64,000 nucleotides of DNA from Lingula anatina (taxonomy: Eukaryota; Animalia; Brachiopoda), in contig CM120648.1 in assembly GCA_051362555.1 (NCBI GenBank), positions 10,784,587-10,848,586 on the forward strand, in the 5' to 3' direction. Positions 19,658-58,238 of the stretch are shown piece after piece. The stretch's first letter is position 1, and each line of letters begins with the position of its first letter. The position numbers were made by a program, and so were the translations under genes. The notes below the pieces were generated by a model. That model saw only the letters and a list, made by a program, of their open reading frames with translations. It had not been told where the DNA came from and did not search any database.

Positions 19658-19700
<43 letters not shown>

Positions 19701-21001: not shown

Positions 21002-21042
<41 letters not shown>

Positions 21043-27789: not shown

Positions 27790-30700
27790 ATGGTCGATCG
27801 AGAGAGAGCTCTGGGGAGAAGGGCACGCGAGCCCTCTGGCGACGGTGACAGCGCTGTTCGAGCACAAGGCAGGCCGCTGCTGGAATGTTCGTTAATGCCA
27901 CCAAGACCGACAGCAGGCCTGCCGATTCCCAACGCCGCTGCTCACTTTTTAGCTCGAGAACTAGGACATTGTTCACAGTGTGGATCTAATAGTTCAACAG
28001 CTGTGTCTTCGGTGGCTTCGGACTTAGACAGTTACGGATCAGGAAGGGATTTGCTTCCACCGCCTTTATCCTGCTCGAGATCGAGACAGATTTATAACGG
28101 TACGCCGGTGTATGATGACATTGAGGGAAATAGCCCTGTACAGTGTAAGAAAACGTCGAGGACGAGACGATGTTTATGTAGCCTATCCGTTAAATGTTTG
28201 CTCACTTTTTTAGTCATATTAACTGGTATTGCTGGAGCAGGGACAGTATTTTACTTCCTTATATATAAGCCCGATATGGAAAGACTCCAGCAAAAGATAA
28301 ACAAAACAGAAGACTTGGCGAGGTTAAAACAGGTACGGAATTCTTCATTTTATATCTGTACATTGCTACTGAAATATATTGGGGGGGGGGGGGAGCGCAG
28401 TTCAAATTTTGATAATAAATTGCGTTTTCATTTTACGTTTTAGTGACGGACGGATGTATAGTATTAATTTAAAGGCGAAAGATCCCTAGAAGGTGAATAC
28501 GTTTAAAAGGGTTTGCATGTTTAGGCACGGCTAGGGTGTGGTTGGTGATGTAACAGTTTATCGTTCTCACTTCACTAACCAACTTTTATTTATTATCCGT
28601 AGATATATTTGCCTCTTTTTTCTAATGTGAATCCCCGCCCCCTTCAAAACTGTCTGAACGCGTTTTTGCAATGATTTAATTCCACGACTTTTTCCTCTGT
28701 TTTGTGCGCCTTTTGTTTAATTTGGTTTCAATTTCGATAAAACTTGCCTCATTGTTTCATTTTCGTTTTCAGTATAATGGTGAAAATTTGAAGAACGCAC
28801 GCCAGTTAGAAGGGGAAGGCCCTTCTGCATTCCTTTATGGGAAGAAGCCAGAAAGAGGTAAATTTCACTGTACTTTTGAAATATATGTAAAAAAGAAAAT
28901 AGACAAATAAGTCTTCAATATAGCCTACATTGAAGATAAAACAGGCAGTTGGGATTAATCAAATCTTTCATTTAATTCTTTCAAACAAAAAAGTTTCCTT
29001 TCCAGTGTTGGAAAAACCTCATCTAAAATAGAAAATTATTCTCCATAAATAAAAGAATTGAATGCCTCAGGCGCCTGTCGTCTGCACACTGCAGTCGTTC
29101 ACACACCTGAGCATCGTTATCTTAGCGTAACGAGGTCAACATCGGTCACTTTCGCGGAAGTCCGGAAATTCCGAAGTTGTGAGACCAGCGTATTGCACGT
29201 TACAGGTGTATTGGTATTCCATTGAATAGTTTGTTTTATAAACATACCTTATAACCGCAGTGAGTCATCGGATGAGATAACAATTGCAGAAGAATTTCGA
29301 AAGGGTTTTAGGGATTTACATACAGAATAGGCCCGAGGTTTTGATAACTTTTGGCCTTTACTCATAACTCGGGGAATATAATTTCGATTTTGAGAAACCA
29401 TATCATAATATTTTGCATGTGCAACTGAGACAATTTAGTTTTATTATCTCGCATTGGGTATTATTCCCCATTCGCGTGTAATTGATAGGGATAGGCCTTT
29501 CCTATATATATTGCCTAGTCTAATATGACAGATCCAGGGGTAGGCCTATTTCGAAAACCAAAAGTAAAGTCAACTAGAGCTCGTCGTATGACGATATAGA
29601 AATCACGCAGTTACCTACTCAGCTGCTGAGGGCGGATCCAGAGATATTTTCTGACAGTCTTCCAAATTATCTTTGTTGATCCATCCACCATTTTTGACCG
29701 TCTTCCGACAGAAAAAATTAGATACCCCTCAATGTAAACTTTAAAATCTTACCGTCTTCTGGAAGACCCAGAAGACCGCCTAAATCCGCCCCAGCAGCAT
29801 TACACCACCTAAGTCAACAAAAAAGCAAATGTGCGGAGTTGAACTCATATGAACTGAAGACATCTTTTTTTTTATATTTGTCAGTTTATGAGCTGGGGTA
29901 TTCTAATTGTTTTCTAAAATAGCTGGAAATCTTTTTAAAAAATTATGTAACGTTTTTGGAATGCAGATGCATTAATTAGGTTATCTGCATTTAAGTAAAT
30001 AAATAAATATGTAAAAGACATAGTAGGTTGCTACATTTATTGTTTTAACAATAAAATTTAAAATAACTATGTCAGAAATAACACACAAAAAAAGCTGAAT
30101 CGAAAATGTTTGGAAAATTTTTTTCTAAATAAATCGGGACAGCAGAACGAATTAAGGAGAGAGGGAAGTGGAAAAATGACAGGAAACAAAAGGAACAGAT
30201 AAATAAACAAACAAAAAAGGGGGAACAAAGAAAAAAATAAGCAAAAGAAATGAAAATCAAGCCAAGAAACAATTTTTAAAAAATCTTGAGATTCAACCGT
30301 AATTTAAAAATCATATCCTTTTTTATCTTATCGCAGGTGATCCAACACCAATTGTATGGGACACTGAAAAACGACGAAAACCCCGCAATACCATTCTCAA
30401 GAATATCACCGAGCACAAGATTCGAAATGACCATCATCTTAGGGTACACCAACGTGGAATATATCGGGTTCAAAGCCACCTTTGCTTCAAAGTTCAAGTG
30501 GACGGAGCAGATGACATCTCGAGCACCTCACTGACTGCGAGCGACGGGGACGAACGAATCGGCAGAGGGCGCTCCAAGACGTTCTTACATTTTGTGATAA
30601 GAAATTGCCAGGGAAACGAAGATGAAGTGTTGAAAACTTTGAAGCTGGTTTATCTGCTGCCAGGAGAGGAGTACAAATACTGCAGCGATCTGTCCGGCCT

Positions 30701-30821
30701 TGTTGGCATGGACAGCGGCTGCTCTTTGTATACTAAAATTAAATGTGAAGACGACTCAAGTGACCTTACACAATATATGGAGCATTATAATTGGAACTTT
30801 TTTGGATTAAACAGAGTGTGA
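27790..30821 (+). CDS. TNF superfamily ligand (type II membrane protein, ~370 aa)
   Basis: Exons 27790-28332 (phase 0), 28773-28857 (phase 1), 30337-30821. TM LLTFLVILTGIAGAGTVFYFLIY. TNF homology domain hallmarks: PSAFLYG (strand A), IVW, LRVHQRGIYRVQSHLCF, terminal NFFGLNRV*. Confidence 0.9.
29629..29793 (-). mobile_element. ~168-bp MITE family 3 (GGGCGGAT...ATCCGCCC termini), copy in TNF intron 2
   Basis: Reverse complement of copies at 41151-41317, 41545-41713 and 45126-45293. Confidence 0.8.
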
Positions 30822-35937: not shown

Positions 35938-35940
35938 TTA

Positions 35941-36392
35941 AGTAGGCTACATAGATTATGAGTTCGAGCAGCGAGATTTTTCAAGGGAATTCCCCAAGAA
36001 ATCTCGTTGTGAAACGGAGGATGAAATCGGTAAGCATAAGATCTGTATATCTATCTGTCAATATATGTCTAAAGGACCACTTCTGGTAGGCCTATAGGCC
36101 TATAATAGACGGGAAGAGAGAGCGCCTGGGAGCTTAATCACGCTGAACATAGGCCTGATAAATTTTGGGTGATTAAGCTTCCCATGTGCCCCCTCTTAAA
36201 TTCCCGTCTATTATATAGGCCTACCAGTAGGCCTAATGGTCCTTGAGACGTACTGCATATGACAGATAAAGATATAGGGGCCTATACAGATCTGCTTACC
36301 TACTTCGACCTCGGTTTCACAACGAGATTTGTTTGGGGAATTCCCTTGGAAAATTTGGCTGCTCGAATTCATATTCTATATGTAGGCCTACT
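35941..36392. mobile_element. ~450-bp fold-back (palindromic) element with one perfect kB site in each arm
   Basis: Arms are reverse complements over ~200 bp (ttcgagcagc...gggaattccccaa...aaatctcgttgtgaaac versus gtttcacaacgagattt...ttggggaattccc...gctgctcgaa); kB sites at 35985-35995 and 36335-36345. Confidence 0.8.
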
Positions 36393-36899
36393 AGTTGTTG
36401 AGTAATTCCCTTGGGAACCTGTTATACATGCTGTAGCCCTGGTCGATCTGGAAGCCTTCCACAGTTTCTGCAGGAACTTAATTGTACGTTACTTACTCAG
36501 TTCGTTCCACTCGGAGACTTCTCAGCTTCTGATAAAGAAATATTTTTCTAACTGGCGTGTTGCAAACGGTAACAGCGACTGTTTGGTTGGCAAGTTGTTT
36601 TTAGTGTCAAAGTCAGTGAATGATCTTGCCCTTGTAAAGACTAAACACGCACGACGTTCGTTAGAATTAACCCAGCAGACAAACGGCATTGATTAACCGT
36701 TGAATCAACATTAATTTTGGTGGGTCAACGTTGAATCAACGGATAATCAGTGTCGTTTGCCTGCTAGGCTGCTGGGAATTCAGCTGGTACATGTATATAC
36801 TGTATCAAGCAAGTGTCAGGAGGTATCGCTGGTACCAACCCCTCAACCACCTTGGAAAGGAAAGTTAGCCGCAGTTCCTACCTCCGGTACTGCAGCAGA

Positions 36900-37282
36900 G
36901 GGAGACCCAGTGATTTAAACGCGGAGGTAACACTATTAGCTGGAGACCCGACTTGATGGGGATTTGTCGATAGAGGGCTTGTTCACTCGTGTGCCTCCGT
37001 TTCACAACGAGGTTTTTTAGGGAATCCCCGTCTACATCCGCCATCTTAGGTGAGCATATCATAAGGAATTAATATCTGACCAGGTTTGGATATTCAGGAT
37101 AAAGTATTGGTTCGTTTTGTGCTTGAAAAGCGCCATATCATTAAACAGAATCCGTCTGTTTAAAAATAAGTAAATGTTATTGGGTATTTGCTCGCATGCA
37201 CAGCTGTACCCATCTACTTTATCTGTACTTTCTTAGAACACTTGGAATATTCTTGTAACAGGACAAGTGATGAACATTAAGG
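36900..37282 (+). promoter_or_regulatory. Putative promoter and 5' non-coding exons of the TNFR-TIR gene
   Basis: Locally more GC-rich; GGGAATCCCC at 37020-37029; donor ag|gtgagc at 37049; possible second small exon ending at gg|gtaggt (37282). Confidence 0.45.
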
Positions 37283-38299
37283 GTAGGTACCTGAAATTGC
37301 TTTCTTCCTATCTCAACACTGGGCATAATAATATTAAGGCTTATAATTTCTCTTCAAATGATTTATGAGTTTTATTTTTAAGAAGTGGTACCAGTATTTT
37401 ATTTAAATGCTGTCCGAATACAAGGTCAGCCCTTACCAAAAAAAAAAAAAAGACAGCAAGCCACCATTATGATTGAACCACTCATACATGGTACTCACAC
37501 TAGCAAGTAAACTGTGGCAGAGTGAACTCTGATTGAATCGTGGTCGAATAAACCCAGTTTCATTGTGTTCTTACTGATACTGTACAGTTGATAGGAATGG
37601 TACAGTAGACTACTATGTAATTTTTTCCATTCCCCATTACTTTGTACAGGTGACATTTGTCCTATTTACTAACCCCAATACTCTGACTAATCCTAACCTG
37701 TAGTAATCATAATGGAAGTCCCAGGACCACGATTTGGGTCAGACTATAATGTGTAATACAGTGTAACACAAGCAAGTAAACACAGGAAACAGTCATTCCC
37801 AACAATTTACATAATAGGATAATATGAAAGCGAAATATATTACTAGGTAATTAAAGGGACAACAACCATTCGTAAGATACCCACATTTCACAATAAATAC
37901 ATTGTAGGCAACTCAAGGAAATGTAGTAAATTCTATTTTACCACCAAAATGGCAGTTTACGCAATTGTTTTGGAATTTGTGCTTGCTATCACATCACTTG
38001 ACCTCTATAGTTGGCTATACACTCTGTAATAATCTGTTAAGAGGGTCATGGCTATCATTTCTTTTACACTTGCAGTTAAGCTGATGCACTATTGTTCTAG
38101 TTAGAAAGTGATACATATGATAAACATAGCTATTATGCTGTATGAAATATTAAACTTACTCTTGAACACTATAAACTTATTTACTTATTTTGTAAAATAA
38201 ACACCTGGCATAACACTAGCACGTGCTGATATTATAAAATGAAAAAATAAGCAAGCCACTTCAAAATAAACTTTCTTTGAAGTTGTACGCCTTGTTATG

Positions 38300-40040
38300 T
38301 ACAGACACAGATATGTCTGTACATATAGCCATCATCTGCGTCTGTCGTCGCCGTCGTCGCCGTGCACTTTTACCGATAACACGATAAGTGGAAAACCATT
38401 TTACCTTTTGACTTGAAACTTGCGGAACTGATGAATATTCATAATACGCAGGTCAAGTTCGAAAATCAGCATGATCGGGTCACTTTTAGGGAATTTATGC
38501 TGTTTTTTCACTTTTTTCAGCATATATGCAGCACCGATAACACGATAAGTGGAAAACCATTTCACCTTTTGACTTGTAACTTACAGAACTGATGAATATT
38601 CATAATATGCAGGTCAAGTTCCAAAATCAGCATGATCGGGTCACTTTTAGGGAATTTATGCTGTTTTTTCACTTTTTTCAGCATATATACAGCACCGATA
38701 ACACAATAAGTGGAAAACCATTTTACCTTTTGACTTTAAACTTACAGAACTGATGAATATTCATAATACGCAGGTCAAGTTTGAAAATCAGCATGATTGA
38801 GCCATTTTTAGGGAATTTATGCTGTTTTTTCACTATTTTCAATATAAATGCAACACTGATAACACAATATAAGAAGTTAAGATGTGACTTTGAACTACCA
38901 TGAGCCTGCAGCCCTTTGCTAGTCACATTTTCTGAATGTCCATGTTACTAATATTCTATTATTAAAAATTGATGGTCATTATGCTGTTTAACATTATGTA
39001 ATGTTGCATCAAAATTTGAAGAAACCCCTATTTTGGGCACTGCTCCCATGATGACCATTTAAGGAAAATCATGTCACTTACTGTGCTCAAACTTACAGGA
39101 AAGAAACTTGGGTCTAAATTACATGTGTTCAGCTTCTGTAGGCAATGCAGTTTGTTTGGTAATTTTTTTCTGGCAATTAAACAGTTTTTTGTGAAAATTT
39201 TATTTTTCACTTATTGGCATTTTCAAGGTGTGACTTTGAAGTTCCACGATCCTGAAGACCTTTGCTTGTCACTTTTTCTGAATGTCCATGTTACTAATAT
39301 TCTATTCTTAAAAAATTGATGGTCATTATGCTGTTAAGCATTATGTAATGTTGCATCAAAATAGAAGAAAACACAATTTTTGGTGCCGCTGCCATGATGA
39401 CCATTATGAGAAAACTGTGTTACTTATGACTATCAAACCTTTAAAAAAGAAACACTGGACTAAAATGCAGCCTGAGTTGGAAAAGCAGTCTAATTGGCTT
39501 CTTTTTCTGGAAGTTATACATTTGAGTGAAATATTCATTATCTTTTTGGCTCCCATGGACATGAAGGCGAATGGTAATCAAATTTTCTACATGTCCATGC
39601 TATTTATAGTCAATAATCAAAAATTGGTGATAATTATTCTACAATTTATTATGTAATGTTACATCAAAATTGACAACAATCTTTTTGCACTGCTACTGCA
39701 AACATTATGAAAAGAAAACTGTGTTACTTATTATCATTTTTAACTTCCAAGTATGATTTTAAGGATTGGCATGCAGTTCAAATTAGAAAGCCAGGTCAAC
39801 TGGGTTATCATTTATTATTGACTTTATGCAATTTTGTGTGAAATTTTCATTTTTCTCATTCTGGCAATTTCTAAGTATAAACTTGAACTCTGATGGGCCT
39901 GAAGCCTTATGCTCTTACTTTAGTCGGTGTTACCTGTTGTGCATAATTAAAATTTGATAATGACTGTGCAGTTAAACATAATGTATTATTGCATCAGAAT
40001 TGGTAGTCTCCTATTTTGTGCATTATTGTTTTGTGCTTTC
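38300..40040. mobile_element. Helentron/HINE-like non-autonomous element with ~161-bp tandem repeats
   Basis: Head ...gccatcatctgcgtctgtcgtcgccgtcgtcgcc; units start at 38372, 38533, 38694. Related copy at ~47380-49550, fragments at ~55680-56445. Confidence 0.6.
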
Positions 40041-40045
40041 CTTAA

Positions 40046-41713: not shown

Positions 41714-42452
41714 AAACTTGTGGCAAGAAATAATTTCATGAAGGGGGGAGGGGTGCAAGGAGTGATAGGGTATTGCAGTTCTTACATACCATGTCTGATA
41801 CAGTCATTGAACTGTACTGTCAGAAAATTTTATGAAATCTTATTAATTCTCCACTTACGTACTAGTAAAATTTGGGCAGAAGTTCCAAATGTAAACATTC
41901 CATCGTGACTGCTATGCAGAGTTAACTCTGATTAAACCCTTTAGGCTGTATTCCCAGAGCTTTTAGATCGATCTATCCCCGCGGGGAGTCTCACTAGATA
42001 ATTGTCAGATAATTCGGCTTAAATGTCCGTCCGGCCTACTACAAGCTGTAAGGGGGTAATTAACTTTCGTGGCCGCTTGGCTGACCGCTATGTAGCGTGA
42101 ACCCCCAGGGAGTTAGGTCGATCTAAAGTAGATTGATCTAATCTCTGGAAATGGGGTCTTAGTAGATTTCTGTTTATTTGGACCGTGGTCAGGGGTATGT
42201 ACAGGGTAGTCTGTTTAGATTGGAATACTTATAACTTGTTAACCCAGATATAGGTCCTAAGGACCTTGGTAAGGTCTTAACCGCGGTCGAAAATGCAAGT
42301 GTGAATGGGGTATATGTCGTCTACAGAGGAGTTGAGTGTTTATGGTACTAGTTCTGTCGCTTTACCATTAACATTTTTCTCTTGTTTTAGTCCCTTGTTG
42401 AAGGGGTTACCATAGTGACAGTAACCTTCCATACCCGCCTGGTTATTCGGCT

Positions 42453-45400
42453 ATGTTGGATATATACAAGGTAAGTGCTGGTTAGAAAAACACAAGTTAG
42501 AAATCTTATGATGTTTTGTAATATTTACCTGGGTTGAATAAAAAATTATTTAGTACCACCAGCGTGTACGCTGGCGGTACTCATGGTTTTAGTCCCGATC
42601 CGTCTCATCCGGCTCCGTAAGCTCCGCCGGCTCCGCGTACTGGCGCCGGATACAAGTCACCGTTACCGCTTCTCCTCCTAGACCGCAAGGACCCCTGTCC
42701 CCATCTCTTGGATTTAGGTCACATATAACCTCAACTTGAACCCCCAGGTTTTTTTGTCTCAGTCAGTGCATTAACCTGGGCGTGACGCTCGTTGAAATGC
42801 ACCCTTGTCAAATTTTTGAAAATTCAATGCCAATTATCTACCCTACGGAAGGAATTATGGGAAAAATTTATACAGACGGCTTTCCAAAAGTCATGTGTAG
42901 ATTTCAAATATGCCCTTGGATTTGACCTTTGACCTTTATTTCAAGGTCAAACGGGCCAAAATTTTCAAAAAAATGAAATTTTTTACAAAAAAAATATTAT
43001 TTGCGCTGTTATTCAGACACTACACAATAATATTATTGGAAAGTTTTACCCTTTGGGTCATCTTTCATCTTCGTGAATTTGGGGTCAATCGGTGCATTTT
43101 CATGGGAGAAGCGGCCATAAGATACCGAAACTGAAAACTGTCTCTAATTCGGGAACCGTTAATGCTAGCATCCCATTCTTTTTTGCATTTTGTAGAGCAT
43201 GTAAAGCCCAACATTGAAGGTGGTCTCTGTTTTTTTGTATTTCATACGGTTTTCGTGTTATGCTGTATTAAAAAGTTCATTGTGGTGGCACATTATTGTA
43301 ACTCAGAATTGTAACATTTAGTCCCTTATATCTCCAAAACTGGCAGAGATAGGTCAATAGTTATTATTTAAGTTGAATAGGAAGTCACTTACTGGCATTC
43401 TAAATGTGACCTTGAAATTGACCTTTGACCTATTTTCACCATGAACTGAACTTTGCAAATTTTTGTTCCCTTTTATCTCCAAAACTGGCAGAGATAGGTC
43501 AATAGTTACTATTAAAGTTGAATAGGAAGTCACATACTGGCAATTTAACAGTGACCTTAAAATTGACCTTTGACCTGCTTTTCACCATGAATTGAACTTT
43601 GCAAATTTTCGTTCCCTTTTATCTCCAAAACTGACAGAGATAGGTTCAAAGTTACTATTGAACTTGAATAGGAAGTCATAAACTGGCAATTTACTGTTAC
43701 CTTAAATTTGACCTTTGACCTACTTTTTACCATGAACTGAACTTTGCAAATTTTCTTTCTCTTTTATCTCCAAAACTGGCAAAGATACGCCCATAGTTAC
43801 TATTGAATTTGAATAGAAAGTCATTAGAGGCAATTTGCTGTGACCTGAAAATTGACCTTTGACCTACTTTTCACCATGAACTGAACTTTGCACATTTCCA
43901 TTCCCTTTTATCTCCAAAACTGGCAGAGATAGGTCCATAGTTACTATTGAACTTAAGTAGTAAGTCATATACTGGCAATTTACTGTGACCTTAAAATTGA
44001 CCTTTGACCGTCTTTTTACTATGAACTGAACTTTGCAAATTTTCTTTCTCCTTTATCTCCATAACTGACAGAGATAGGTCCATAGTTACTATTGAACTTG
44101 AATAGGAAGTAATACACTAGCAATCTGTGACCTTGAAATTGACCTTTGACCTACTTTTTATGATGAACTGCTTTTTGCATGTTTTCGGGCCTTTAAATCT
44201 GCAAAATTGGCAAAGAAATGCCCATGGTTGCTATTGAACTTGAATAGAAATTCATATACTATGATATTGAAATTGACCTTTGACCTACTTTTTCACCATA
44301 AACTGAGCTTTGCATATTTTCTTGCCTCTCATATCTTGTGCCCCTGATGTGCCCCTTGTTACCCCTAGGTTTTCTCTTTTGTCAGCATAAATGCACCATT
44401 GACAACACTTTTCAAGGAAAACCAATAGGCCTTTTGTCTAGAGAATACAGGAGTGATCAAAGGTAGGAAAATGCAAGTCAATTCAAAAATGTGCTTGATT
44501 GTACCATTTTTAGTTATATTTTTTTGCATATTTTGAGAACTCTTATTGATTGCATCTTAAAGAGCTTGTCAAGCATAAGACTGGTGATGGTGTCCCTTTT
44601 TGGAGGGGGGGGGGGGTCCATACGAATGCGCTTACTCCAGCTGGTGGTACAATATCCGGAGGCGGTATCGCCTCTCTGATCCTCTAGTTTTACTTGTAGT
44701 AGATGCATAATTTTACTAGTAGCTGTATAAAAATTTTGAAGAATATAAAATATGTGAGTTTACAGCGGATTTGTTTAAAAGAATCTGCTAATGTGGCTTA
44801 AATATGTGGCACGTCTACTGAAGCTGCTAAACAAAAGTTTATTACCCCTTACAGCTTCAGTAGGCATGCTAGACATTAGAACGGCTTAGGCTGAACTTCA
44901 TGCAATTTAGTGAGAAACCCCTTGATGATGGATAGATTTTGCTTTATCCATCTAGGTAAGGGAACGGGGTGTAATTCTATTGTTTTTTATGGGTTTCTCT
45001 CCAGAAAATTGCCATCATTCTTTCCTGCCTAGCTTACCTACAAGGCATCAAGACCTGTGATCCAGGTACGTATGCACGAACATGTGCATGCATGCATGTT
45101 TGATTCTACTGATAATCATAAATATCAGGGGAGGATTTAGGGCGTCTTCTGGGTCTTCCAGAAGACGGTCAGATTTTCAAGTTTACATTGACGGGTATCT
45201 AATTTTTTCTGTCGGAAGACGGTCGAAAATGGAGGATGGATCAACAAAGATAGTTTGGAAGACTGTCAGAAAATAACTCTGGATCCGCCCCTGAATATGT
45301 ATGTGTAAATGAACATATTTGAAGTAGCAGACTATATATATTACTTGTAAGTGAGCATTGTTATAGGCGGTAGACATGTGAAAATCACCATTTCTTGTAT

Positions 45401-48400
45401 TAATATTTCTGTGAAGAATTTCTATGTGACTGAACATGTTTTAAATTAGGAAAAATAAGGAGCAACAGTTTTATTGAAACTGAATGTGTGATTGTGAAGA
45501 ATGCTTCCTAGGTTGTATGTCAAAGTGATTTATCATTCTTATAATCCTCTTAGTTATATTTGCATTTATTTATTTATCATTTCATTATGTACATATATTT
45601 TTATTATTTTTAACGTTTATTTCTTTATTATTATGTACATTATTTAAATATATTTTTATTTTTTATCTTTATTTTTTTTAATCATTTCATTATGTATATA
45701 TTTATTTTAATTATTTTTTATCTTTATTTATCTATTAGGCCAAGAACCTGATGGCAATGGCGGTTGTAAAGAATGTCCGCCTGACTATTTTAATGCTAAT
45801 AACAGTCCTGTGGACTCCATACTTTCCTACTGTATAGCATGGACCAAATGTAATGGAGATGGCCAGTATATATTAAAAGAAGGGACTTCTCAAGAGGTGA
45901 GTAAGTTACCATCAAGTGTCCGGCCTGGTGCAGGCATAGACCCCATTTCCATAGATTTTTAGATCGATCTATCCCTGTGGGGAGTCTTACTAGATTACTG
46001 TCAGCTTGGCCGGCTTAAGCGTCTGTCCCGCCTACTAAAAGCTGTAAGGGGGTAATTAACTATGGTGCCCGCTCGGCTGACTGCAATTTAGCGTGAACCC
46101 CCAGGGAGTTAGGTCGATCTAAAACTTAATCTTTAGATCAATCTAAATCTCTAGGTAAGCACCCATAGAGGATCAGGGTCCAGTTTAGTCTATTGTCAGT
46201 CAGTTGGATGTGCTCGTTATTGTACAGTTGTTGATTTGTTGCGAAGGCATTAAGGCTATCAATAAATGATGTTCTTTGTCTTCATCTGCTTGTTCTTCCT
46301 TCAGTTTTCTCACAGAGTACCAGTGTTTCTATTCCATCTGTTCTGATGATATGGCCTAAAGATTTCGTTTGTCCTTTTCTGATTGTTTTCATCAGTGAGC
46401 GTTGTAGGTGATTGATTATAAATATATCATGTGAGTTTACTATGGATTGTCTAAAAACTGTAGAATTTTATACCTTTTGCCTATAAAAGAGAGCATTATG
46501 ATCAGTATGCTAAGTACTAGAGTACTTATTATTATGCTAAGGACTGAAAAGTGACACAAATTACAACTTTTTGGTACAAAGAGAGGGATTTTTTTTCTCT
46601 TTTACATGATTTTCATGTCAAGTAGAGTAATTGTAATAGCAGATCAGCCAAAGGCTTCTTTTCACTACCCTAGGTTCTAGATTCCGGTATTGCCAGCTCG
46701 ATCTTGATTTCATATACAACCCATAGTAGCAATACCAGGCTCTAGCGAACAGTGGCAACTCGGGGGCGTTCTTCTTCAAAATTCTGCCTGAGGCGCTTCC
46801 ATATTTGGAAGTCACACGTCACAGCTGTGTCCGCCTGGATCCATATTTGGAAGTCATAAGTCTCGTACGTCACAGGTTTGGCCGCCTGGAGCTGCCTTTC
46901 CCGCCTTGCGCTGAAGTCTCGTGCAGGCGAGACAAGAAGCAATTTAAGTGCCTGACGCGGAGTTAAAAGTTTGAATTGAAAATATCTTGCAGTCGAAGGT
47001 CAGTGCCACAATACAAGCAACATTCTGCTGTAAAAACTTATTTTCGTATAGCCATTGCGCAGCCCTTATAGTGGTATCGGGCATACGGTGTAGCTGTCAA
47101 ATTTGGCACACGGCAAGCACATGTATTGTGCACGTGTATATCTCAAGACTAAATGTTCTTTGATAAGTAAAAAATACAAAAACATTGGATATATCTTTTC
47201 TTTCCGAAGAACATTATTTATTTTTTCACTTTACATGTTAAATACAGCAAATAAAATTAAATAAAGCAGAATTAAATTTGTTTTACGTTTTATTTTGGTC
47301 TGATGACATTCAACTGCATTTTCACTGCGGAACAGTTCTATTTGATTGATGGAAAACTTTCGTGGCCGCTGGTCTTCAGAGTTAGTAAAAGCGACTGCAC
47401 ATAGATGTGTCTGTACATATTGCCATCACCTGCGTCTGTCGTCGCCGATCATGTCGCCGTCGCCGTCGCCGTGCACTTTCAGCGTTAACACCATAAGTGG
47501 AAGACAGTTTTACTTTTTGGCTTTATATTTACAGAGCTGACTAATATTCATAAAACGCAGGTCAAGTTCGAAAATCAGCATGATCGGGCATTATTGTAGA
47601 ATTTATGCTGTTTTTTCACTTTTTAGCATATATGCAACACTGTTAACACATTTCAAGGAAAACCGATAGGCCTGTTGTCATGAAACTCACAGGAGTAATC
47701 ATTCTTACTAAAACACAGGTCAAGTTCGAAAATCGGCATGATCGGGCCACTATTTTAGTAGTTATGCTGTTTTTTTCACTTTTTAGCATATATGCAACAC
47801 TGTTAACACATTTCAAGGAAAACCGATGGGCCTGTTGTCATGAAACTCACAGGAGTAATCATTCTTACTAAAACACAGGTCAAGTTCGAAAATCAGCATA
47901 ATCGGGCCATTATTTTATAAGTTATGCTGTTTTTTCACATTTCCTCAGATTCAATTCTTAGGCATGTTAACAGTCTCATTATTTAACTAATAAGATTCGC
48001 AAAAGTGTTTGTTTGACATTTCCTGCATCTTTACAACATTGTTAGTTGATTATGTAAAAATGATGGTAAACTTGGTATCATGTATTGTATAATAGAGTTT
48101 CAAAAATGGAAATAAACTCATATCATTGCAGTTTGTCAGATTTAATCATTCACTATGTTCAGAAACTCCTAATGGAGGAAATTGGACATTAAACACTGTT
48201 CTATTGATATTTTTCCCATCTCATCAATTTTCTTAGTTGATCATATAAAAATGGCAGTAAATTGTTAATTTTGTTATATGTAAAAAAATTGTTAAAAATG
48301 GAAAAAAACACATTTCAGGACAGTGCTGTCTTGTCTACATTTTGGCATTTTCAAGGTGTGACTTTGAAGTTCCATGGGCCTGAAGACCTTTGCTAGGCAC

Positions 48401-49933
48401 ATTTTCTGAATATCCATGATATTAATATTTTATTATTAAAAATTGATGGTTATTATCCTGTTAAACATTATGTAATATTGCATCAAAATTTGAAGAAACC
48501 CCTATTTTGGACACTGCCCTCATGATGACCATTTAAGGAAAACCATGTCACATACTGTTCTCAAACTTACAGGAAGAAACATGGGACTTAAATAAAGCTT
48601 CAGTGGGCAATGTAGTCTATTTGGTAAATTTTTCTGGCAGTTAATCAGTCTTTTGTGAAAATTTAATTTTTCACATATTGGCATTTTCAAGGTGTGACTT
48701 AGAACCTCCACGGGCTCTAAGACCCATGCTAGTCACATTTTCTGAAAATCCATGATACGGATCTTTTATTATTAAAAACTGATGGTCATTATGCTGTCAA
48801 GCATTATGTAATATTGCATTAAAATAGAAGAAAACACAATTTTGGGTGCTGCTGCCATGATGACCATTATGGGAAAACCACGTTACTTATGATTGTCAAA
48901 CTTTCAAAAAAAGAAACAAAGGACTAAAATGCAGCCTGAGTTGGAAAAGCAGTCTAATTGGCTTCTTTTTAGTGAAATATTTATTTTTATCATGTTGGCA
49001 TATTCATTGTGGGACTCGAAGCTCCCATGGACATGAAGCCAAATGGTAATCAAATTTTCTACATGTCCATGCTATTTATAGTCAATAATCAAAAATTGGT
49101 GATAATTATTCTGTAATTTATTATGTAATGTTACATCAAAATTGACAAAAATCTTTTTGCACTGCTACTACAAACATTATGAAAAGAAAACTGTGATACT
49201 TATTATTATTTTCAACTTACAAGTATGATTTGTAGGATTGGCATGCAGTTCAAATAAGAAAGCCAGCTCAAATGGGTTATCATTTATTATTGAATTTAAG
49301 CAGTTTTATGTGAAATTTTCATTTTTCTCATTCTGGCATTTTCAAAGTGTGAACTAGTACTCCCATGGGCCTGAAGCCTTACGCTTGTTACACATTTCAC
49401 TTACATTGGTATTACCTGTTGAGCATAATTAAAATTTGATGTTGAATTTGCAGTTAGGCATAATGTACTTTTGCATCAGAATTGACAGTGGCCTATTTTG
49501 TGCATTGTTATTGTCTGCTTTTTGTCTGTACATTTGACAGCTTTGCTGCCTTGTTACATTCAAAGTTAGTCCCTGGTTTTTTTCTAAAAAGTTTGTTTTT
49601 TTGTTAAAAGCTCTTAAGAGATTTTAACAGAGTATAGACATCATTGGAGGTCACGTGGTCTAAAGACAAGTTCAAATATCAGTATAAAAGCTATAACTGC
49701 TGTTTTTGTGGTTAAACAGAATATATTATATTTCTATGAGTTATTATTGTTATTATTGTGAAAGGTTTTTATTGTGAAATATAGGTCTCATACAAAGAGT
49801 TATTATGCCTTTAAATTTCAGCATGTCTGACAGGTGTCATATATTAAATGTCAATAACACTACATCAGATAGCAGGATTTACTGGCCCAGTAGTAATGTC
49901 CTTGGCTGCCAAACACTGTTCTGTTTTGTTCTT

Positions 49934-49968
<35 letters not shown>

Positions 49969-51382
49969 TTAAATAGTGTATACTAATCTGTTATCATGGT
50001 TAAGTAATTGATGTGATGGGTATCAGCTAGTAGATTATTTATTATGGTTTCCACTTATTGTTATGACCCTTTACATATACATATGAGATGAATGTCCTAA
50101 ACTTATATAATTTTGAGCGCTTAATTCAAGCATGGGCTCGAAATAGGACATTATATTTTCATCTAACTTAGTGGATAACGTGATCCAAACATTCCACGGT
50201 TCGTGTCAGATTTACGTTAGGTCGTGCAAAGAAAAGCCAAGTCCACATAATGACCAGTTTAATGGTTTTTGGTTAAATCTCTTGGGCTACATGTTCTACG
50301 TGAAGCCTCCAACTTCCAAGCTGTCTCCCATGGCTCTGTCGAGCGGTCACCTTTGCGTCATCTTCAGTCTGAACCCCCAATATTAATTCTGAATGTCTTT
50401 TATACAATATTTATTATCAGTGGTGGATTCTGTGCTGCATTATTTGGCGGTACATACTAATTTTTAATTATTCAAATTGCACACGTCCACTTACGTTATA
50501 TAACTACAGGTAAGGCCATAAAACGAGTCGAGTGCACAAGCAATCAACTCCAATCAAATTAATTTACATGTCTGGAGATAATAATTGTGAACTGAACATT
50601 ATGGGACATAATATAAAATTCATAATAGGCTTATCTAAAACCAGTCTCTTTTTATGTCAGTTAGTAGGCCAGTCCCTGTTTTTATCATTTCTCTTTTTCT
50701 TAAGTGAGTCAGTTATAAGCTAGATATCACTATGCACTGTCATGTTGCTATTTATCAAAGGTAAGCTTATATCCAACATTCAGATTGAATCGTCTGTTAA
50801 GGTAATTATAATGCCCTTTTGATATTTCTGTGTGATGACCTGAGGATTATTTTCACTTTGTATCAAGAAAATGAAATTGTATTGTTGTCTCTATCGTGTA
50901 CAATGTAAATAATCTTATGTATAATGTTCATTTAAAGCCATTGCTGTTTTATCTCAAGGCTAAATTCACAACAAACTAAATTCAAACAAGTCATGGCTCA
51001 GTACATTTATTTCACTTTAGAACTTGGTCATTACTCCAGGACACTTTCAAAACCATGTTCATTTGAGATAAAATATTCTAGGGTAATATATTGCTGTATT
51101 ATAATTAATTTTTTCTCAGTTTCCTTGTTCAAATTGATATAAAATTAAAAGGTTTCCTGTACTTATGTCAGCTTGAGCTGACTTGGTTTAACTTCATTTT
51201 ACTTTAGGACCGCCGATGCTGGTGCAATGAAACGGCAGGCTACGGACCGAAAAAACCGAAGCGATGTTACAAAGGCGGCATTGTGCAAACTGGAGAGCTG
51301 GAGGAGGCGTGTCAGTGTCGCAAGTGTAAACTGGCCGGAGACTGTCCTCTGCTCAGGGATAAGAATGGAAGTCAGTGCCTTT

Positions 51383-51421
<39 letters not shown>

Positions 51422-52377
51422 TTTGATTTTTATGTGTTTATTTAATTTTCATTTCTTGATTTATTTATTAAATTTTTATTTATTTATCAATCAATTTATT
51501 TATTTGATTTTTATGTGTTTATTCATTTTTTTATTTGTTTGTTTGTTTATATTTTATTTAATTTTCATTTCTTGATTCATTGATTTAATTATCATTATTA
51601 TTTTATTTTACATTTTATTCTTTACTAAAACAACATGCGATTAAACAGGAAAAAAAAACAAATGGCCATATCACTTAAAGGCAAGAATGCAGATATCCCT
51701 AAGCTGTATTATTGACAAAACAGATGTTGAATTTGTAGAATCATTCAAATTGCTTGGAGTGTATATCTCTAATGACCTCACAATGGAGTGTATATCTCTA
51801 ATGACCTTCAAATGAAAGACTTCCATTATAGATTTATTAAGATATCAAATAGAAGTTTGTTTTCAAATTCAACAACAACCAAGAAATATAAGGAGCATTC
51901 ACATCGAGAAGAGCGGAGGTCTAGTAAGGCCGCGGCCTAAATATGGCAGACCTACATGAAAGGAAGACCGCACATCCTGTTAATCCTCACCACGCGTGGT
52001 CCCAGCAGGACCACAGTAATTAAATCTCAGCTCAATTCAACTGGTCGAGGGACAACTCGTAGAGGGAGGAGAGACTATTAAAAGAATAGCAGTCTTCCTT
52101 TCATGTAGGTCTGCCATATTAAGGTTGCAGCCTTACTAGACCACAGCTCTTCTCATCTTAAATGCTCCCATAGTATTGGTGTTCAAGCATTTTTTAATTA
52201 AGTTGATGTATTTATTTTCATTTATTGTATTTATTGGGCTGGCAGTGATTTCATCCTTAACACTTTGACTTAATATTTTCATCAATGTGCTTACTTAGCA
52301 AACATAAGAGTAAAAATACAATATCAAGATTTCAGCAGGGCCTTGGATGTGCAATATCTTCATTGGTTTTTGTCATG

Positions 52378-52430
<53 letters not shown>

Positions 52431-55400
52431 ATCTTATACATGAAACATTTCAGTCCTACTTGAAGTACTTACACTAGATGTGGGCCATGAAAGTATAGGT
52501 TTGAACTCTTGTCGGCCTTGCAGTGGGTATGTAAATACAGTTGAAATGGCATTATATAAATTCTAATAGATTTGCTCACTGGAAAGATTAGATAAAGGTT
52601 AGAACAAGGCATAAAATGTCCAGTATGTAGAAGAAGTCTCACTTTTTGCAATGTATGTTACTACTGTTGTTTTGCCTATAATCAGATAACTTTGTGGAGT
52701 ATTCAGGCTTTTAAGTTCCTATTTTGCTGCCTTAAGATATAACTCTTAACATAATTTTTCATTGACCCTGTTTATTTCCAATATACCTATTAACTTACTA
52801 ACAGAGTTCGTACTGTACCTGGAAACCTGGAATAATCATGGATATTTATTTTGAAATTTCCAGGCCCTGGAAAACCTGGAGAAATAGGTGTTTTTTAAAA
52901 AATGTAAAATTACATCTGGAAAACACCTTAAATTTGATAATTTTTCACAACCCCTATCGTTATACTAGTTCATGCACGGTTTATTTATAATTTTGGTTTT
53001 CACCAATGACCGCTAGATGTCTCATGTATGATCGGCATGTTTCGGAAATAGTCAAACTACAAATTTATTTGAATAATTAAAATGTTTTAGAGAAAATTTT
53101 GTGTTTTCTTTTAGGCTTTATAAAATATGACTGTATTATGATCTCAAACTAATATTCCCTTTCATGAAATATAATTTACAGCCTCAAATATTAGAAAGTT
53201 TTTACACCTGGAAATTTAAAAATAATCCTGGAAAAGTCCTGGAAAAATCCTGAAATTTTGTTGAACGTTTTGAGTACAAACCCTGTACTAAAATACATCA
53301 AAGAAACCCACTTTATTTGCCTTACCTGTAAAATATTGGTATGAAAAGCCAAAATTAATAATTTCTAAAATTAATTAGGATATATCTCCATGAGTGGAAG
53401 ATCCACATGCAAGCATAAACAGTTTTTGCTATTAATATTTAACATGAGGCTTGTCTTGTTCTTTCAGGGTGCCAGTGACACAAGTGGTGCCCCCTACAAC
53501 TAAGCCAGTGACAAGTTCAGTACCTTTGCCAACCAACTCCAGTGATGTCACAGACCACACAGGAATTGCAGCTGCTTCCACACCTAAAGAAAAGACGAAC
53601 TATTCAGTAGTCATTGGTGTTCTTGTCGCAGTAGTAGGCGCAGTGGTGATAATAGCTGTGATAATAGGTAGTTGTTGTTTGTGAGTTTTAAAAGGCCAGT
53701 TTTAAATCAAAATGGACCAACATATTCATTGTTAGTCCAGGCTATCTCACCTAGTCATTTGAAGCTGGTCCCTGGGCTAAACCAGAAAATTTTTAAGATT
53801 CAAATTTGAGTCATCTTAGGGGCCATTCAGAAAAGAAGATGTGAGTATCAGCTGGTCCAAGGATCAAATATGGCTGATCGTATATGAAAGGAAGACTGCT
53901 TTATCCTGTAATGGTCTCTTGGCCTCTCACTCCCCTCCCCACACATTGTCCCTGCAGGGGCACAGTAATTCAATCTCTGCTCCATTCAACCAGACTAAAA
54001 AGAATTATTGATTGATAAGTTATTATTTGTTGTCAAAAATCAGTATTTTTTAGATTGTTGGAGACCCAAGGAACATATTTTTAGATGCATTTTACTGTCC
54101 TATGAGCTGTAATGTGTAGAGATATGAAATTGTATATGAGATACTTATTAAAATATATTTTATTTTCAGTTATATGGAAAAGATCAGGAAACTCATGCCA
54201 TGTCACAATGTGTAATTGTGTTAAAGGTAAAAACCACAGTGGACAACTTTTATTTATATAGTTTAAAAGAATGCTTTACATTGAAAACCACTGTTGTATA
54301 TACAGTGCTTTATTTAGTTTTTAATCTTGAAATTGCATAACATATTATTTACTTAAGATTTACAGACATGCTGAAATTGTCGGTCTGAACAGTCATGTCA
54401 GGGAAAATTTGTCTGGACCAGTGAAAAATTGGACTTGGTCGGTCCAAAGGACCAACAAGAGTTTTAAGAATTGCAATTTCGAATATACAGTCATCATTCA
54501 ACATACTTCACTAATCAAATTATTTAAAACACAAAGTGTTTCTTCCCTTCCATTTCAAACCTATCACATTCACAAACAAAGTAAGCTACCTATTCATACT
54601 GGTATTATCTGTCTCAAACAGATAGGGTGATTTTCGCTCCAACAAAAATCTATTTGGTCCGGCCATTCTGAAAAGTTTTTAGCATGTCTGGATTTAAATG
54701 AATTGTAAAGATCAAAATACTGCTTTTATGGTACAATAAAGAATCATTTGTTTCTCTTTCAGGAAACATTCAAAATAGCCATCAGTATGATCCTGTTAGT
54801 CGGTCCTCATCCGGGAATTACCAAAATGGCCACACCAGTGGCTTGGATAGGGAAATGTCTTTAATGGCTAACAGTGACCCAGAGAATGAAAGCAGTCTTA
54901 CTGTAGTGAACGGTAAATAATCTTGCTAGATTTGGATTCATTAGCATTAAGTTTTCAAAATTGAGTAGACTGAATAACTGACTGACTGGATCCTTTTGAT
55001 GTTTGTATTGTATGTGTCATCAATTAAAAATTCCAACAGTTGTAAGTGTTAGTCTTAAAGGTAACAAAAGCTCAATTTTATAGAAATTTCGGGTCTTTTT
55101 TTTAATGCCACCTCCATTGTTCCTTAAATTATGATCCTTATAGATGCATACAAAGTCAATTTTTTGTCACAAAAACCAACCAAATGCCAGCATATAGTTT
55201 CAAGTAGTATAACTAAGAGAATTGCCAAAAGGCATTGTTTAATTTTACCCGAAAATGATGTTTGAACGGATTTTTCTGCTGGCATTCTAAGCTGTATGTC
55301 AATGGGGCAGGAAAGTAGGTCACGAAAGTAGGTTAAATTTACAACCAAAAATTTAAAGAATGGAGCAGTCTAAAGGTCTTTTATGGCTGATCGAGTGATC

Positions 55401-58238
55401 TATTCAGTTTACCCCTTGGCATGTCGAATTTATTTGAGTCATATAAGAATCTAGTAGAAGTGGTTTACATGTGTTACTGGGAATCCACGCTCGGTTCGTA
55501 TGTACCTTTAAACCAGTTTTTGACTTCCTTATTTCTTGTTTCTGGTCTTCAGAGAATGGCCAAAATGACCATGTCAATAGTTTGCCAAGGGAAGAGCAGT
55601 TACAGAATGGTGCTGTGGAAAGAGAGGGTGGTCAAATGCAAGGTATTGATTGATCGGGCCAATATTTTAGAAGTTATTCTCACTTTTCATCTTATATGCA
55701 ACACTGTAAACACATTTCAAGGAAAACCAATAGGCTTATTGACATGAAACTCACAGGAGTGCTTAATTTTACTAAAATACAGGTAGAGTTAAAAAATAAG
55801 CTTAATTGGTTCAGTTTTGATGCAGTTATTCCTTGTTTTGTTTATAAGTGCTTTTACCTCAGATTCAATTCTTAGGCATGTTTACAGTCTCATTATTCAA
55901 CTAATTAGATAGGTATAACTGTTCTTTTGACAAATTTTTCATCTTTACAGTATTGTTAGTTGATTACATAACAATGGTGTTAAACCTCTATTAATCTATT
56001 GTATAATTAAGTGTCAAAAGTGGATAAAAAACAAATCATTGCAGTCTGCCAGATTTAATCATTTACTATATGTTCAGAATCTCAGAATGGAGCAAATTGA
56101 ACATTTAACATGGTTCTATTGATATTTTCTACATCTCAACAATTTTCTTAGTTGATCATAAAAAATTACAGTAAATTAATTGTTTTATGTAAAAAAAAGT
56201 GTTAAAATGGAAATAAACCCATTTCAGTACAGTTCTGTCTTGTTTACATTTTGGCAATTTATGGTTACACATTTTACTTACATCTGTAATACCTGTTGAG
56301 CTTAATTAAAATTTGATGTTGAATTTGCAGTTAAGCATAATTGTGTTAAGCATAATGTTAAGCATAATGTACTCTTGCATCAGCATTGACAGTAGCATAT
56401 TTTGTGCATTATTATTTTCTGCTTTTTGTCTGTACATTTGACAGCTTTTTTTAATGCCACCTCAAAAATTGTTCCTAAAATTATAATCCTTAAGCCAGTT
56501 TTTGACTTCCTTATTTCTTGTTTCTGGTCTTCAGAGAATGGCCAAAATGGCCATGTCAGTGGTTTGCCAAGGGGAGAGCAGTTACAGAATCGCGCTGTGG
56601 CAAGAGAGGGTGGTCAAATGCAAGGTATTGATTCTTGGCCTAAGTTTGAAAATCGGCCAATACTGTAATGGCCGAATCATTTCAAATGGGAAAATTATCA
56701 ATATTTCAGATACATAAATTTAGAATCATCAAAAAATACTTTCTTGTGTATCATTTTGGTGCTTTCACTTTTAAGAAAAGAAGTATTAGGTAGTCTGCTT
56801 TTTACTTAAAATATATAGTGTTATAGGGGGTACTAGATAAATTCACAATTTTCCTGGTTGAAATGATGTAGCCTTTACCATATTCATTGGATAAAACTGA
56901 GCAGACTTTTTAGGTTGAGGTATTTTGTCTTTTGTGACACCCAAAAAAAATAAATTTAGTAGTTTTATTTTATGGCAATCCTGGACTTGTTATAATTATG
57001 ATGTCTGCCGTGTACATATAGTAACTTTTAACAAGGTGGGCTGAAAGACAAAATATTTCACTTATACCAGTCTAGTAAAGCTACTTAAGTTATTTAATAA
57101 GCTCTCAAAAAGTATGTCAAAGACCAATACATGTGTTTTATGTATTAACAATAAAAATTTCACTTATGCTATGATCATAACCAATTTTGGAGTCAACATA
57201 TTTTATTTTTCTAACAAGTCGTTATTTACAATTTCTGTAATTGAAAAAGCAAAAAAAAAAAAAGAAAAAAAGATAAACAGCCATGTTTCCCAACCTTTTT
57301 CACATACATGTAGAAGATTATTTTGCTTCAATAGTTTATAATAAACTTTTTTTCTGTCAGGTGATGATAATCCAGTCCCCCCAGTTCGTTACAAATACGA
57401 CCTCTTTCTGGTGCATAGTAGTGAAGATGAGGAGGAGGTTCTCGAGTTAGCAGAACGCCTGGAAGAAGAACATGGCATAAAATGCTGCTATGCTGACAGA
57501 GATTTTCAACTTGGGAAGCGTGTCATGAACAATGTGGAAGATCTTTTCAAGGAGTGTAGACACATAGCACTTTGTTTGACTAGAAATTATTTGGCTAGTA
57601 GTTGGTGCCAGCATGAGCAGAGCATGGCACTGGGTAAAGCCACAGAGAATGGCGGTCAGGGGATGATCCCGCTGCTCTTCAGTGGCTTTCCCGAGTCTGA
57701 TGTTCCACCAACCCTGAGAGCTTACTCGTACTTCAAACTGACTTCTGATCCACAGTCTTTAGCACAGCTTGCCAGACATATTAAAGGTAATAACAAAGAA
57801 AAAAGTGTCTGCTTCGGAGGGAATTTATAGATGATAACCACTTAAGAGAAAATATTCACCAGTTATTATCCCCAGGGCTGCTGAGGGTCTATAACTGGAG
57901 GGTTAATATATGCATAAGGGCATAGTGTTTTTCACCCTGTCTCTTAGGAGTTTATCCCACCTCACTCAAACTTTGCTACATTTTCTAGAAATTCTTAAAT
58001 TATACGGTGGCTGGGATGTGCTGTATTTTAAAATTTTTAAAATGTTTATTCGCCAAAAAAAAAAAAAAAAGAATTAGTGCCCAGTCTCACACTAACCGAA
58101 TTTTTCTGGTAATGAAGAAAAAATTGTAAATCTAATTCTGCAAATAACATATTGCATTAATGGATGTCAATTCTGCAAGTAGGTAAATCTTGCAGTATTT
58201 GAATTTTTTATTCAGAGTGCTTTTATTTTTCAGGCTGA
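42453..58238 (+). CDS. Type I receptor with TNFR-type cysteine-rich ectodomain and cytoplasmic TIR domain (~470 aa)
   Basis: Exons: 42453-42470 (MLDIYK); 45005-45065 (KIAIILSCLAYLQGIKTCDP, signal peptide); 45739-45896 (CKECPPDYF...CIAWTKCNGDG...EGTSQE); 51208-51370/4 (DRRCWC..., 7 Cys); 53468/76-53667 (Pro/Thr/Ser stalk and TM); 54170-54226; 54763-54912; 55553-55642; 56535-56624; 57361-57786 (TIR: YDLFLVHSSED, CYADRDFQLG, YLASSWCQHE, IPLLF); 58234-58238 (stop). All junctions are frame-consistent except exon 4/5, which has two in-frame solutions. Confidence 0.82.
42549..44400. mobile_element. Helentron-like element with terminal hairpin and ~145-bp tandem array (about 7 units, 43320-44335)
   Basis: Hairpin agtaccaccagcg-tgta-cgctggcggtact at the start; units begin near 43329, 43474, 43620, 43765, 43909, 44054, 44196. 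Confidence 0.7.
45126..45293 (+). mobile_element. MITE family 3 copy with 5-bp TSD
   Basis: AATAT|CAGGGG...CCCCTG|AATAT. Confidence 0.85.
45939..46155. mobile_element. MITE family 4 (agaccccatttcc.../...ggaaatggggtct), second copy at ~41945-42160
   Basis: Two close copies with internal inverted repeat tagatcgatcta; degenerate relatives near 44800-44970 and 58680-58935. Confidence 0.7.
46270..46410 (-). mobile_element. RTE-like LINE fragment
   Basis: Minus strand translates TIRKGQTKSLGHII, resembling the RTE reverse-transcriptase C-terminal region. Confidence 0.45.
47380..49550. mobile_element. Second Helentron/HINE-like copy with ~160-bp tandem units
   Basis: Same head (gccatcacctgcgtctgtcgtcgcc); units at 47560, 47718, 47878; long collinear match to ~38880-40030. 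Confidence 0.65.
51690..51810 (+). mobile_element. LINE (L2/Rex-like) reverse-transcriptase fragment
   Basis: Translates EFVESFKLLGVYISNDL, matching the common xKxLGVxI motif. Confidence 0.55.
51892..52168. mobile_element. Fold-back MITE with ~75-bp inverted arms
   Basis: ggtctagtaagg...atatggcagacctacatgaaaggaagac versus gtcttcctttcatgtaggtctgccatat...ccttactagacc; partial relative at ~53818-53995. Confidence 0.8.
52802..53285. mobile_element. CAG...CTG MITE with 6-bp TSD
   Basis: TACTAA|CAGAGTTCGTAC...GTACAAACCCTG|TACTAA; internal cctggaaa repeats. Confidence 0.7.
54363..54690. mobile_element. CAG...CTG MITE with 6-bp TSD
   Basis: GATTTA|CAGACATGCT...AGCATGTCTG|GATTTA. Confidence 0.75.
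55142..55507. mobile_element. TTAA-flanked MITE family 2, copy 2 (inverted relative to 10757-11133)
   Basis: Reverse-complement match to 10757-11133; empty site visible in the duplicated segment at ~56490. Confidence 0.85.

Follow-up and report, generated by a model that had tools for sequence, protein, structure and literature searches.

An expressed TNFR-TIR receptor gene directly downstream of a TNF gene in the brachiopod Lingula anatina: a putative ligand-receptor pair

In a stretch of 64,000 nucleotides from the brachiopod Lingula anatina (contig CM120648.1; "the window"), an expressed gene for a TNFR-TIR receptor lies directly downstream of a gene for a TNF ligand. The ligand gene occupies 27790-30821 and the receptor gene 42453-58238, both on the plus strand. 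The receptor combines a TNFR-type ectodomain with a cytoplasmic TIR fold, and the adjacent TNF is its putative ligand. The nearest proteins to both genes are from Lingula anatina itself and are 97-98% identical: in RefSeq, the last TNF exon shows 97% identity to XP_013393217 (LOC106160949; P0004), and the TIR exon shows 98% identity to XP_013402594 (LOC106168180; P0001). Expression was followed in four raw RNA runs of nine (X1, X4, X7 and X9, of which X7 and X9 come from one study); likeness thresholds for the reads differ (88 and 94), and paralogues may contribute reads. The features of the two genes and of the sequence ahead of each are as follows.

27642..27651, plus strand: near-consensus kB-like decamer (9/10, not strict) upstream of the TNF gene
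27680..27689, plus strand: decamer like an interferon-stimulated response element (ISRE) upstream of the TNF gene, one of 19 such decamers in the window
27790..28332, plus strand: TNF exon 1, with the cytoplasmic tail, the type II transmembrane helix and the start of the stalk; 90-93% to the RefSeq copies
28773..28857, plus strand: TNF exon 2, with the stalk and the first strand of the TNF homology domain
30337..30821, plus strand: TNF exon 3, with the TNF homology domain and the stop; read depth in X7 and X9
35951..36379, no strand assigned: inverted repeat of two kB-element copies (sites 35985 and 36336)
36994..37049, plus strand: likely non-coding first exon of the receptor, with the third kB-element copy (site 37020) followed by a splice-donor-like site; its inferred end is near 37049
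42391..42470, plus strand: receptor start-codon exon, ATG at 42453; P0003 matches 42405-42470
45005..45065, plus strand: receptor exon 2, likely signal peptide and first cysteine
45739..45896, plus strand: receptor exon 3, main TNFR-type cysteine-rich domain (TNFR_c6), the most variable exon among copies
51208..51370, plus strand: receptor exon 4, second cysteine-rich stretch; 48/54 to P0001
52454..52526, plus strand: receptor exon 5, end of the cysteine-rich region; RNA joint onward in 4/4 runs
53468..53667, plus strand: receptor exon 6, Ser/Thr/Pro-rich stalk and transmembrane helix (hydropathy); RNA joints on both sides in 4/4 runs
54170..54226, plus strand: receptor exon 7, juxtamembrane; RNA joints in 4/4 runs
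54763..54912, plus strand: receptor exon 8, linker (gene model and RNA)
55553..55642, plus strand: receptor exon 9, linker of 90 nt, copy 1 (gene model and RNA)
56535..56624, plus strand: receptor exon 10, linker of 90 nt, copy 2 (92% to copy 1), joined in X1
57361..57786, plus strand: receptor exon 11, TIR (TIR_2), 426 nt, phase 1 at both ends, with RNA
58234..58238, plus strand: last coding bases of the receptor and stop; a 447-nt skip at the preceding intron in 3/4 runs

The ligand and receptor genes

The ligand gene has three exons, GT-AG introns and a single open frame of 370 residues, and the complete three-exon TNF ligand called in an earlier, sequence-only reading of the window was recovered intact. 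By hydropathy, one hydrophobic segment (residues ~127-159) follows a hydrophilic N-terminus, which is the type II topology with a C-terminal ectodomain. Pfam TNF matched the protein at E=0.0029 and 18 bits, under the curated cut-off of 23. In the ESM Atlas, the RefSeq copy P0004 was assigned to TNF at 0.91, with 27 of 30 matches being TNF and 199 shared features, and it matched a TNF cluster in structure at a template-modelling (TM) score of 0.68. A PDB sequence search with the ligand returned no matches, and its single-sequence fold reached a predicted local distance difference test (pLDDT) of only 37. Membership of the TNF superfamily, with a C-terminal TNF homology domain (jelly-roll), is established for the window ligand. 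Its sequence is not the same as either full-length RefSeq TNF copy, so the window probably comes from a different individual or assembly.

The receptor gene has 12 coding exons, all bounded by GT-AG, that encode 496 residues in register with P0001. The protein begins with a hydrophobic N-terminus, followed in order by a cysteine-rich region, a Ser/Thr/Pro stalk, a transmembrane helix, a linker and the TIR domain; one helix at ~200-231 together with the hydrophobic N-terminus gives a type I topology. Tandem arrays occupy parts of the receptor introns (38372-38869, 161 bp x 3.1; 43322-44321, 145 bp x 7; 47551-47942, 160 bp x 2.5). Pfam matched TIR_2 at E=3e-21 and TNFR_c6 at E=7.6e-4, the latter under its cut-off. 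We assign the ectodomain to the TNFR type because four lines, each modest, agree: the TNFR_c6 match; PDB matches of the paralogue P0007 to 4-1BB residues 76-137 (E=6e-4) and OPG (E=0.005); TNFRSF neighbours of the ectodomain in the ESM Atlas (0.82, a lead only, with TM 0.50-0.55); and homology of the ectodomain and transmembrane region to the death-domain paralogue P0057 (28-35% identity, E=1e-21). The TNFR-TIR gene of the sequence-only reading is thus upheld by its exons, its domains and its RNA joints (below).

Solely TIR families match P0001 in Pfam, and the absence of an intracellular death domain there places the receptor outside the death-receptor subgroup. Pfam scans of the receptor found no leucine-rich-repeat or immunoglobulin (Ig) ectodomain of the Toll-like receptor (TLR) or IL-1R kind, and a scan with three generally known TRAF-type patterns gave one PxEE-type match in the linker and otherwise none. 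A model of the TIR domain (pLDDT 93.8; 73 sequences) had the MyD88 (TM 0.80) and MAL (TM 0.79) assemblies as its top Foldseek folds, then TLR1 and Hydra TRR-2, and predicts a cytoplasmic TIR fold for the receptor. The RefSeq label "TLR5" on the related entry P0002 was rejected, as P0002 is a TIR-only fragment.

The receptor is expressed, and in RNA its transmembrane exon is spliced through to the TIR exon. Joints 5-6, 6-7 and 7-8 are present in all four runs; among the joints listed, 8-9 and 9-10 occur in X1, and 9-11 occurs in X7 and X9. X1 joins both copies of the duplicated 90-nt linker exon; in X7 and X9, copy 2 is skipped or absent and copy 1 runs into the TIR. The 447-nt skip at intron 11 (3/4 runs) has a placement that is 2 nt off. 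In X1 and X4, the first mate of the joint reads is always on the minus strand, consistent with plus-strand transcription of the receptor. Joints 4-5 and 10-11 are absent among the 15 of 24 receptor joints listed, and the covered stretch excludes exons 2-3 (45005-45896). The wider table, swamped by repeat-derived reads, shows no TNF splice joint, receptor 5'-exon joint or first-exon joint among the 15 of 432 joints listed. Receptor exons 1-5 are linked to the rest by the predicted open frame and the RefSeq model.

The intergenic stretch, kB-like sites and expression

From the TNF stop to the receptor ATG is 11.6 kb, and to the likely non-coding first exon ~6 kb. The claim that the two genes lie on the same strand with only repeats between them withstood scrutiny: between 30821 and 42390, none of the 15 stop-free frames of at least 70 residues reaches a Pfam cut-off; Rfam gives no matches between TNF and receptor; and tandem and dispersed repeats are present, drawing heavily mismatched reads. 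A gene hidden between the two was rejected on the Pfam and Rfam results.

The strict kB and ISRE consensus sequences used in the motif scans are those of general knowledge. Strict kB sites stand ahead of the receptor at 35985, 36336 and 37020, and they are not independent of one another because they lie in copies, 81-89% alike, of one repeated element. Their count was reached in 0 of 1000 shuffles, with an approximate shuffle and a region picked after the sites had been seen. The enrichment was rejected as independent evidence on all three grounds. Both copies in the inverted repeat at 35951-36379 end in splice-donor-like sequence, on opposite strands, and the element copies at 35951-37049 are possibly duplicated promoters or first exons. 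Further strict sites lie in the window at 9658, 11648, 33355 and 61704; the last of these, downstream of the receptor, possibly belongs to the promoter of a further gene that leaves the window. A Rel-responsive neighbourhood around the pair is plausible from the motifs, whereas pair-specific co-regulation through kB sites is not shown by them.

Summed read depth over the TNF last-exon bin and the receptor TIR bin was 0.5 and 9.8 in X1, 0.1 and 3.7 in X4, 5.4 and 8.3 in X7, and 3.8 and 5.2 in X9. The ligand-to-receptor depth ratio thus differs ~15-25-fold between X1/X4 and X7/X9, and the two genes are not tightly coupled. TNF depth varies strongly among the runs, and the receptor is present in all four. 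These depths fit a broadly expressed receptor with a regulated ligand, not tight co-expression.

Origin of the receptor, a putative cognate pair and its rivals

A search with P0001 against 1.84 billion representatives gave 2921 matches. Among the best 150, only P0007, P0008 and P0057, all from Lingula, match the ectodomain, and the remainder match the TIR; the TNFR-TIR receptor is apparently restricted to Lingula in these sequence data. TNFR_c6 was found at E<=0.01 in none of the 35 proteins scanned, P0001 included (best five families per protein), and since Pfam misses the ectodomain, domain surveys would miss the TNFR-TIR architecture. In P0057 (LOC106155781) the intracellular part carries Death and OTU. 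The TIR likely replaced the death domain of a P0057-like TNFR by exon shuffling in the Lingula lineage, an origin that suits a TIR exon whose 426 nt begin and end in phase 1. A TIR tree of 46 rows gave no supported sister group for the receptor TIR; the Lingula Ank-TIR family is its best TIR match (40%), and an origin there is a lead only. LOC106155781 (P0057/P0159), which lies outside the window, combines the same ectodomain type and death domain with a C-terminal OTU deubiquitinase, and its 526-residue isoform stops ahead of the OTU region. A TNFR that brings its own deubiquitinase is likewise unusual in its architecture.

The receptor copies do not diverge evenly. In a comparison of protein sequences from three to four copies, the main cysteine-rich exon (45739-45896) is identical to P0001 at 32/53 and to P0007 at 41/53 positions (60-77%), next to 152/164 for receptor exons 4-7, 139/142 for the TIR and 166-168/174 (95-97%) for the TNF domain. 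The difference between this exon and the other regions gives Fisher p values from 1.7e-7 (against exons 4-7) to 5e-11, and the changes gather in one inter-cysteine loop in the alignment of copies. Diversifying selection and gene conversion would look alike in such protein data. The window receptor itself resembles a mosaic of the tandem copies in RefSeq: the cysteine-rich exon is nearer P0007, and the transmembrane and juxtamembrane exons are nearer P0001.

In the mechanism that we propose, the neighbouring TNF trimer, as the likely ligand, would cluster the receptor; the clustered TIR tails would nucleate a MyD88-type assembly of TIR adaptors; and NF-kB/MAPK output would follow through the adaptor, as the fold likeness to MyD88, MAL and TLR TIRs suggests. 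Such a system would consist of a ready, broadly expressed receptor and a switchable ligand instead of a co-induced pair. That the adjacent TNF is the cognate ligand, acting through TIR-adaptor signalling, is a possibility that we favour tentatively. It stays plausible because random adjacency is unlikely: random gene order expects 0.004-0.07 adjacent TNFSF-TNFRSF pairs per genome, for 25,000-30,000 genes and family sizes taken from other invertebrates (oyster, amphioxus and coral, PMC12843592, in part; Aplysia too) plus one assumed mid case. The sequence-only reading had gone further, to a co-inherited and co-induced pair in a feed-forward loop from TNF through TIR to NF-kB. Its gene identities and adjacency stood, and chance is an unlikely source of the latter; co-induction, shared kB control and co-inheritance were left unsupported or weakened, and the full co-induced loop is less likely than the cognate pair. 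Somewhat doubtful, too, is the broader picture of a self-contained brachiopod module in which a TNF trimer acts on a TIR-signalling receptor that arose by one exon swap, sits beside its ligand gene and has a fast-changing binding exon.

Several observations weigh against a cognate pair of this kind. The adjacency was singled out in hindsight among the results of a large scan. TNF is nearly silent while the receptor is expressed in two of the four runs (X1 and X4), which leaves co-induction unsupported or weakened. Of the claim that both genes have kB-like sites, the receptor half held, with three copies of one element; within 1 kb of the TNF ATG there is no strict kB consensus site, only the 9/10 decamer, and shared kB control loses its footing there. 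The cysteine-rich exon diverges far faster than the TNF domain (Fisher p=1.6e-10), a gap that does not look like tight one-to-one co-evolution of ligand and receptor at the protein level. Linkage was not reproduced in the fragmented RefSeq assembly, where the ligand and receptor copies are on four scaffolds: TNF copies on scaffolds of 69,062 and 744,486 bp, the receptor loci LOC106168180, 182 and 187 on one of 902,781 bp, and the TIR-only fragment on one of 324,545 bp. A further RefSeq TNF copy was found in none of 12 candidates of 88-280 residues, and the single hit among 373 of 281-2000 residues was P0004 itself. In the TIR domain, the folds of NAD-cleaving TIRs score about as well as those of the adaptors (AbTIR TM 0.79, TIR-STING 0.80), and the BB-loop column holds Leu in the receptor; of 72 homologues, 44 carry Pro at this column and 5 carry Leu.

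The strongest competitor, a serious possibility although we lean slightly away from it, is that the adjacency is incidental: the receptor would be a recently duplicated or moved copy set down among kB-flanked genes, its true ligand another Lingula TNF, and the window TNF would serve death-domain TNFRs such as P0057. The four-scaffold picture suits it, with three receptor loci on a scaffold on which no close TNF is annotated, as do the mosaic look of the window receptor, the strict kB sites that also precede two unrelated genes (9658 and 11648) and the differing expression of TNF and receptor. However, random expectation of the adjacency is low, and the RefSeq assembly has a scaffold N50 of 294 kb and 1.6% heterozygosity (PMC4595640, in part), so that two haplotypes broken in a fragmented assembly could mimic four scaffolds. 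In metagenome contigs, 95 pattern matches to related loci were obtained, none of them confirmed. The same copies bear on a second alternative, in which the ectodomain has largely ceased to be a TNF receptor. It would instead be either a diversifying sensor that detects microbial or non-self ligands or a target for pathogen proteins, linked directly to a TIR as in a Toll-like receptor. Divergence concentrated in one cysteine-rich exon (32/53, as opposed to 152/164 in the next four exons; p=1.7e-7) and clustered in one loop, a conserved TIR (139/142) and several tandem receptor copies are what such a sensor would show. Yet the comparison is of protein sequences from three to four copies, which may be alleles or paralogues, and gene conversion between older copies would give an equal pattern; we regard the sensor as quite unlikely.

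The output of the TIR raises a question of its own. In TLRs, the BB-loop Pro is needed for MyD88 recruitment, and its replacement by Leu would fit a TIR that is an oligomerisation-activated NAD-cleaving enzyme of the SARM1, plant or bacterial type, or an inhibitory TIR, instead of a MyD88 scaffold. So would the helix-C glutamate kept after the WC motif (exon position 85), the fit to the AbTIR filament and the best PDB sequence match, oyster TIR-STING, tied with TLR15 (E=2.3e-10). But the glutamate is also present in 70 of 72 aligned homologues and hence does not discriminate, MyD88, MAL and TLR TIRs come top by Foldseek E-value with SARM1 and plant TIRs lower (TM 0.63-0.70), and the TIR tree left the origin unsettled. 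We hold an enzymatic or inhibitory TIR to be unlikely. Far less probable still is that the chimeric receptor is an artefact of annotation or assembly that fused a TNFR gene with a separate TIR gene. The sub-threshold TNFR_c6 score would allow it, as would RNA joints among the first five receptor exons that are not listed or not covered, but a single open frame runs across the 12 GT-AG exons, RNA joints lead from exon 5 over the transmembrane exon to the TIR, and an independent RefSeq model has the identical architecture. If the TNF proved not to be the cognate ligand, the architecture would still be a verified case of immune domain shuffling.

Neighbouring genes and known systems

Several other genes of the window lie upstream of the TNF gene. 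Its upstream neighbour at 19160-24706 (plus strand) has multiple exons and encodes a precursor that is likely secreted. The precursor contains internal repeats and acidic stretches, and a dibasic site near its end is followed by a cationic peptide with 10 cysteines. It matches no Pfam family and could give rise to an antimicrobial or signalling peptide. At 10184-10756 and 12392-12871 (plus strand) are two similar single-exon open reading frames, each with a coiled coil and a hydrophobic segment, for which no Pfam family reaches its cut-off. Ahead of each lie kB-like sites (9658 for the first; 11648 and 11665 for the second) and a short exon with a donor site; both are candidate Rel-induced genes. 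Two intronless tandem paralogues at 2021-3337 and 7133-8461 (plus strand) carry APD1-4 N and middle domains and hydrophobic segments, and 15533-16436 (minus strand) is a broken Tc1/mariner-type transposase (DDE_3 and HTH_Tnp_Tc3_2 matches).

To our knowledge, TNF and Toll/IL-1 signalling meet at TRAF/NF-kB and use separate receptors in the animals that have been studied. Their union in one natural TNFR-TIR receptor would demonstrate that these pathways can merge at the receptor itself, and such a receptor would put to the test whether clustering in threes suffices to nucleate TIR assemblies. If the proposed pairing is true, the Lingula protein would be a natural TNFR signalling through a TIR, and it would join the few invertebrate TNFRs whose ligand has been identified. 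Because Pfam misses the ectodomain in the RefSeq protein, such receptors may hide among the "orphan TIR" proteins of surveys.

We found no description of a TNFR-TIR receptor in the literature covered, which did not include the main Lingula immune survey (2018) or a 2017 survey of bivalve and metazoan TIR proteins, either of which may list the architecture. In the portions available, PMC11463336 and PMC8195603 hold nothing on it, PMC4346834 and PMC9334734 name only ARM-, Ig-, EGF- and TPR-TIR as TIR classes, and PMC4979521 treats the ligands of invertebrate TNFRs as an open question and leaves TIR unmentioned. Across 13 genomes, the domains recorded as partners of TIR do not include TNFR (PMC2575513, supplement 4). 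For the ligand side, a protostome TNF:TNFR hetero-hexamer has been described (PMC8024323, in part).

The Lingula receptor resembles members of the TNFRSF (4-1BB/TNFRSF9, OPG/TNFRSF11B, and Drosophila Grindelwald and Wengen) in its type I topology and cysteine-rich ectodomain, but it has a TIR tail instead of a death domain, and its ectodomain is short, divergent and missed by Pfam in the RefSeq copy. With IL-1R/Toll-type receptors and the invertebrate Ig-TIR and EGF-TIR proteins it shares a single pass and a TIR end; it differs from them in its TNFR-type ectodomain and in the replacement of the BB-loop Pro by Leu. Lingula LOC106155781 (P0057) has a homologous ectodomain and transmembrane region, differs by its Death and OTU domains and lies on another scaffold. 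The amphioxus TNFR-caspase hybrid Brafl1_82667, supported by cDNA (PMC2575513, in part), likewise sets a lineage-specific TNFR ectodomain on a non-standard intracellular effector; that effector is a caspase, whereas in Lingula it is a TIR, and the available part of the source mentions no linked ligand gene. TIR tails have also been shuffled between ligand-receptor systems in the IL-1R/FGFR and Toll/Trk cases (PMC11087794, in part), in which the ectodomain was borrowed from another ligand-receptor system, as in the Lingula receptor.

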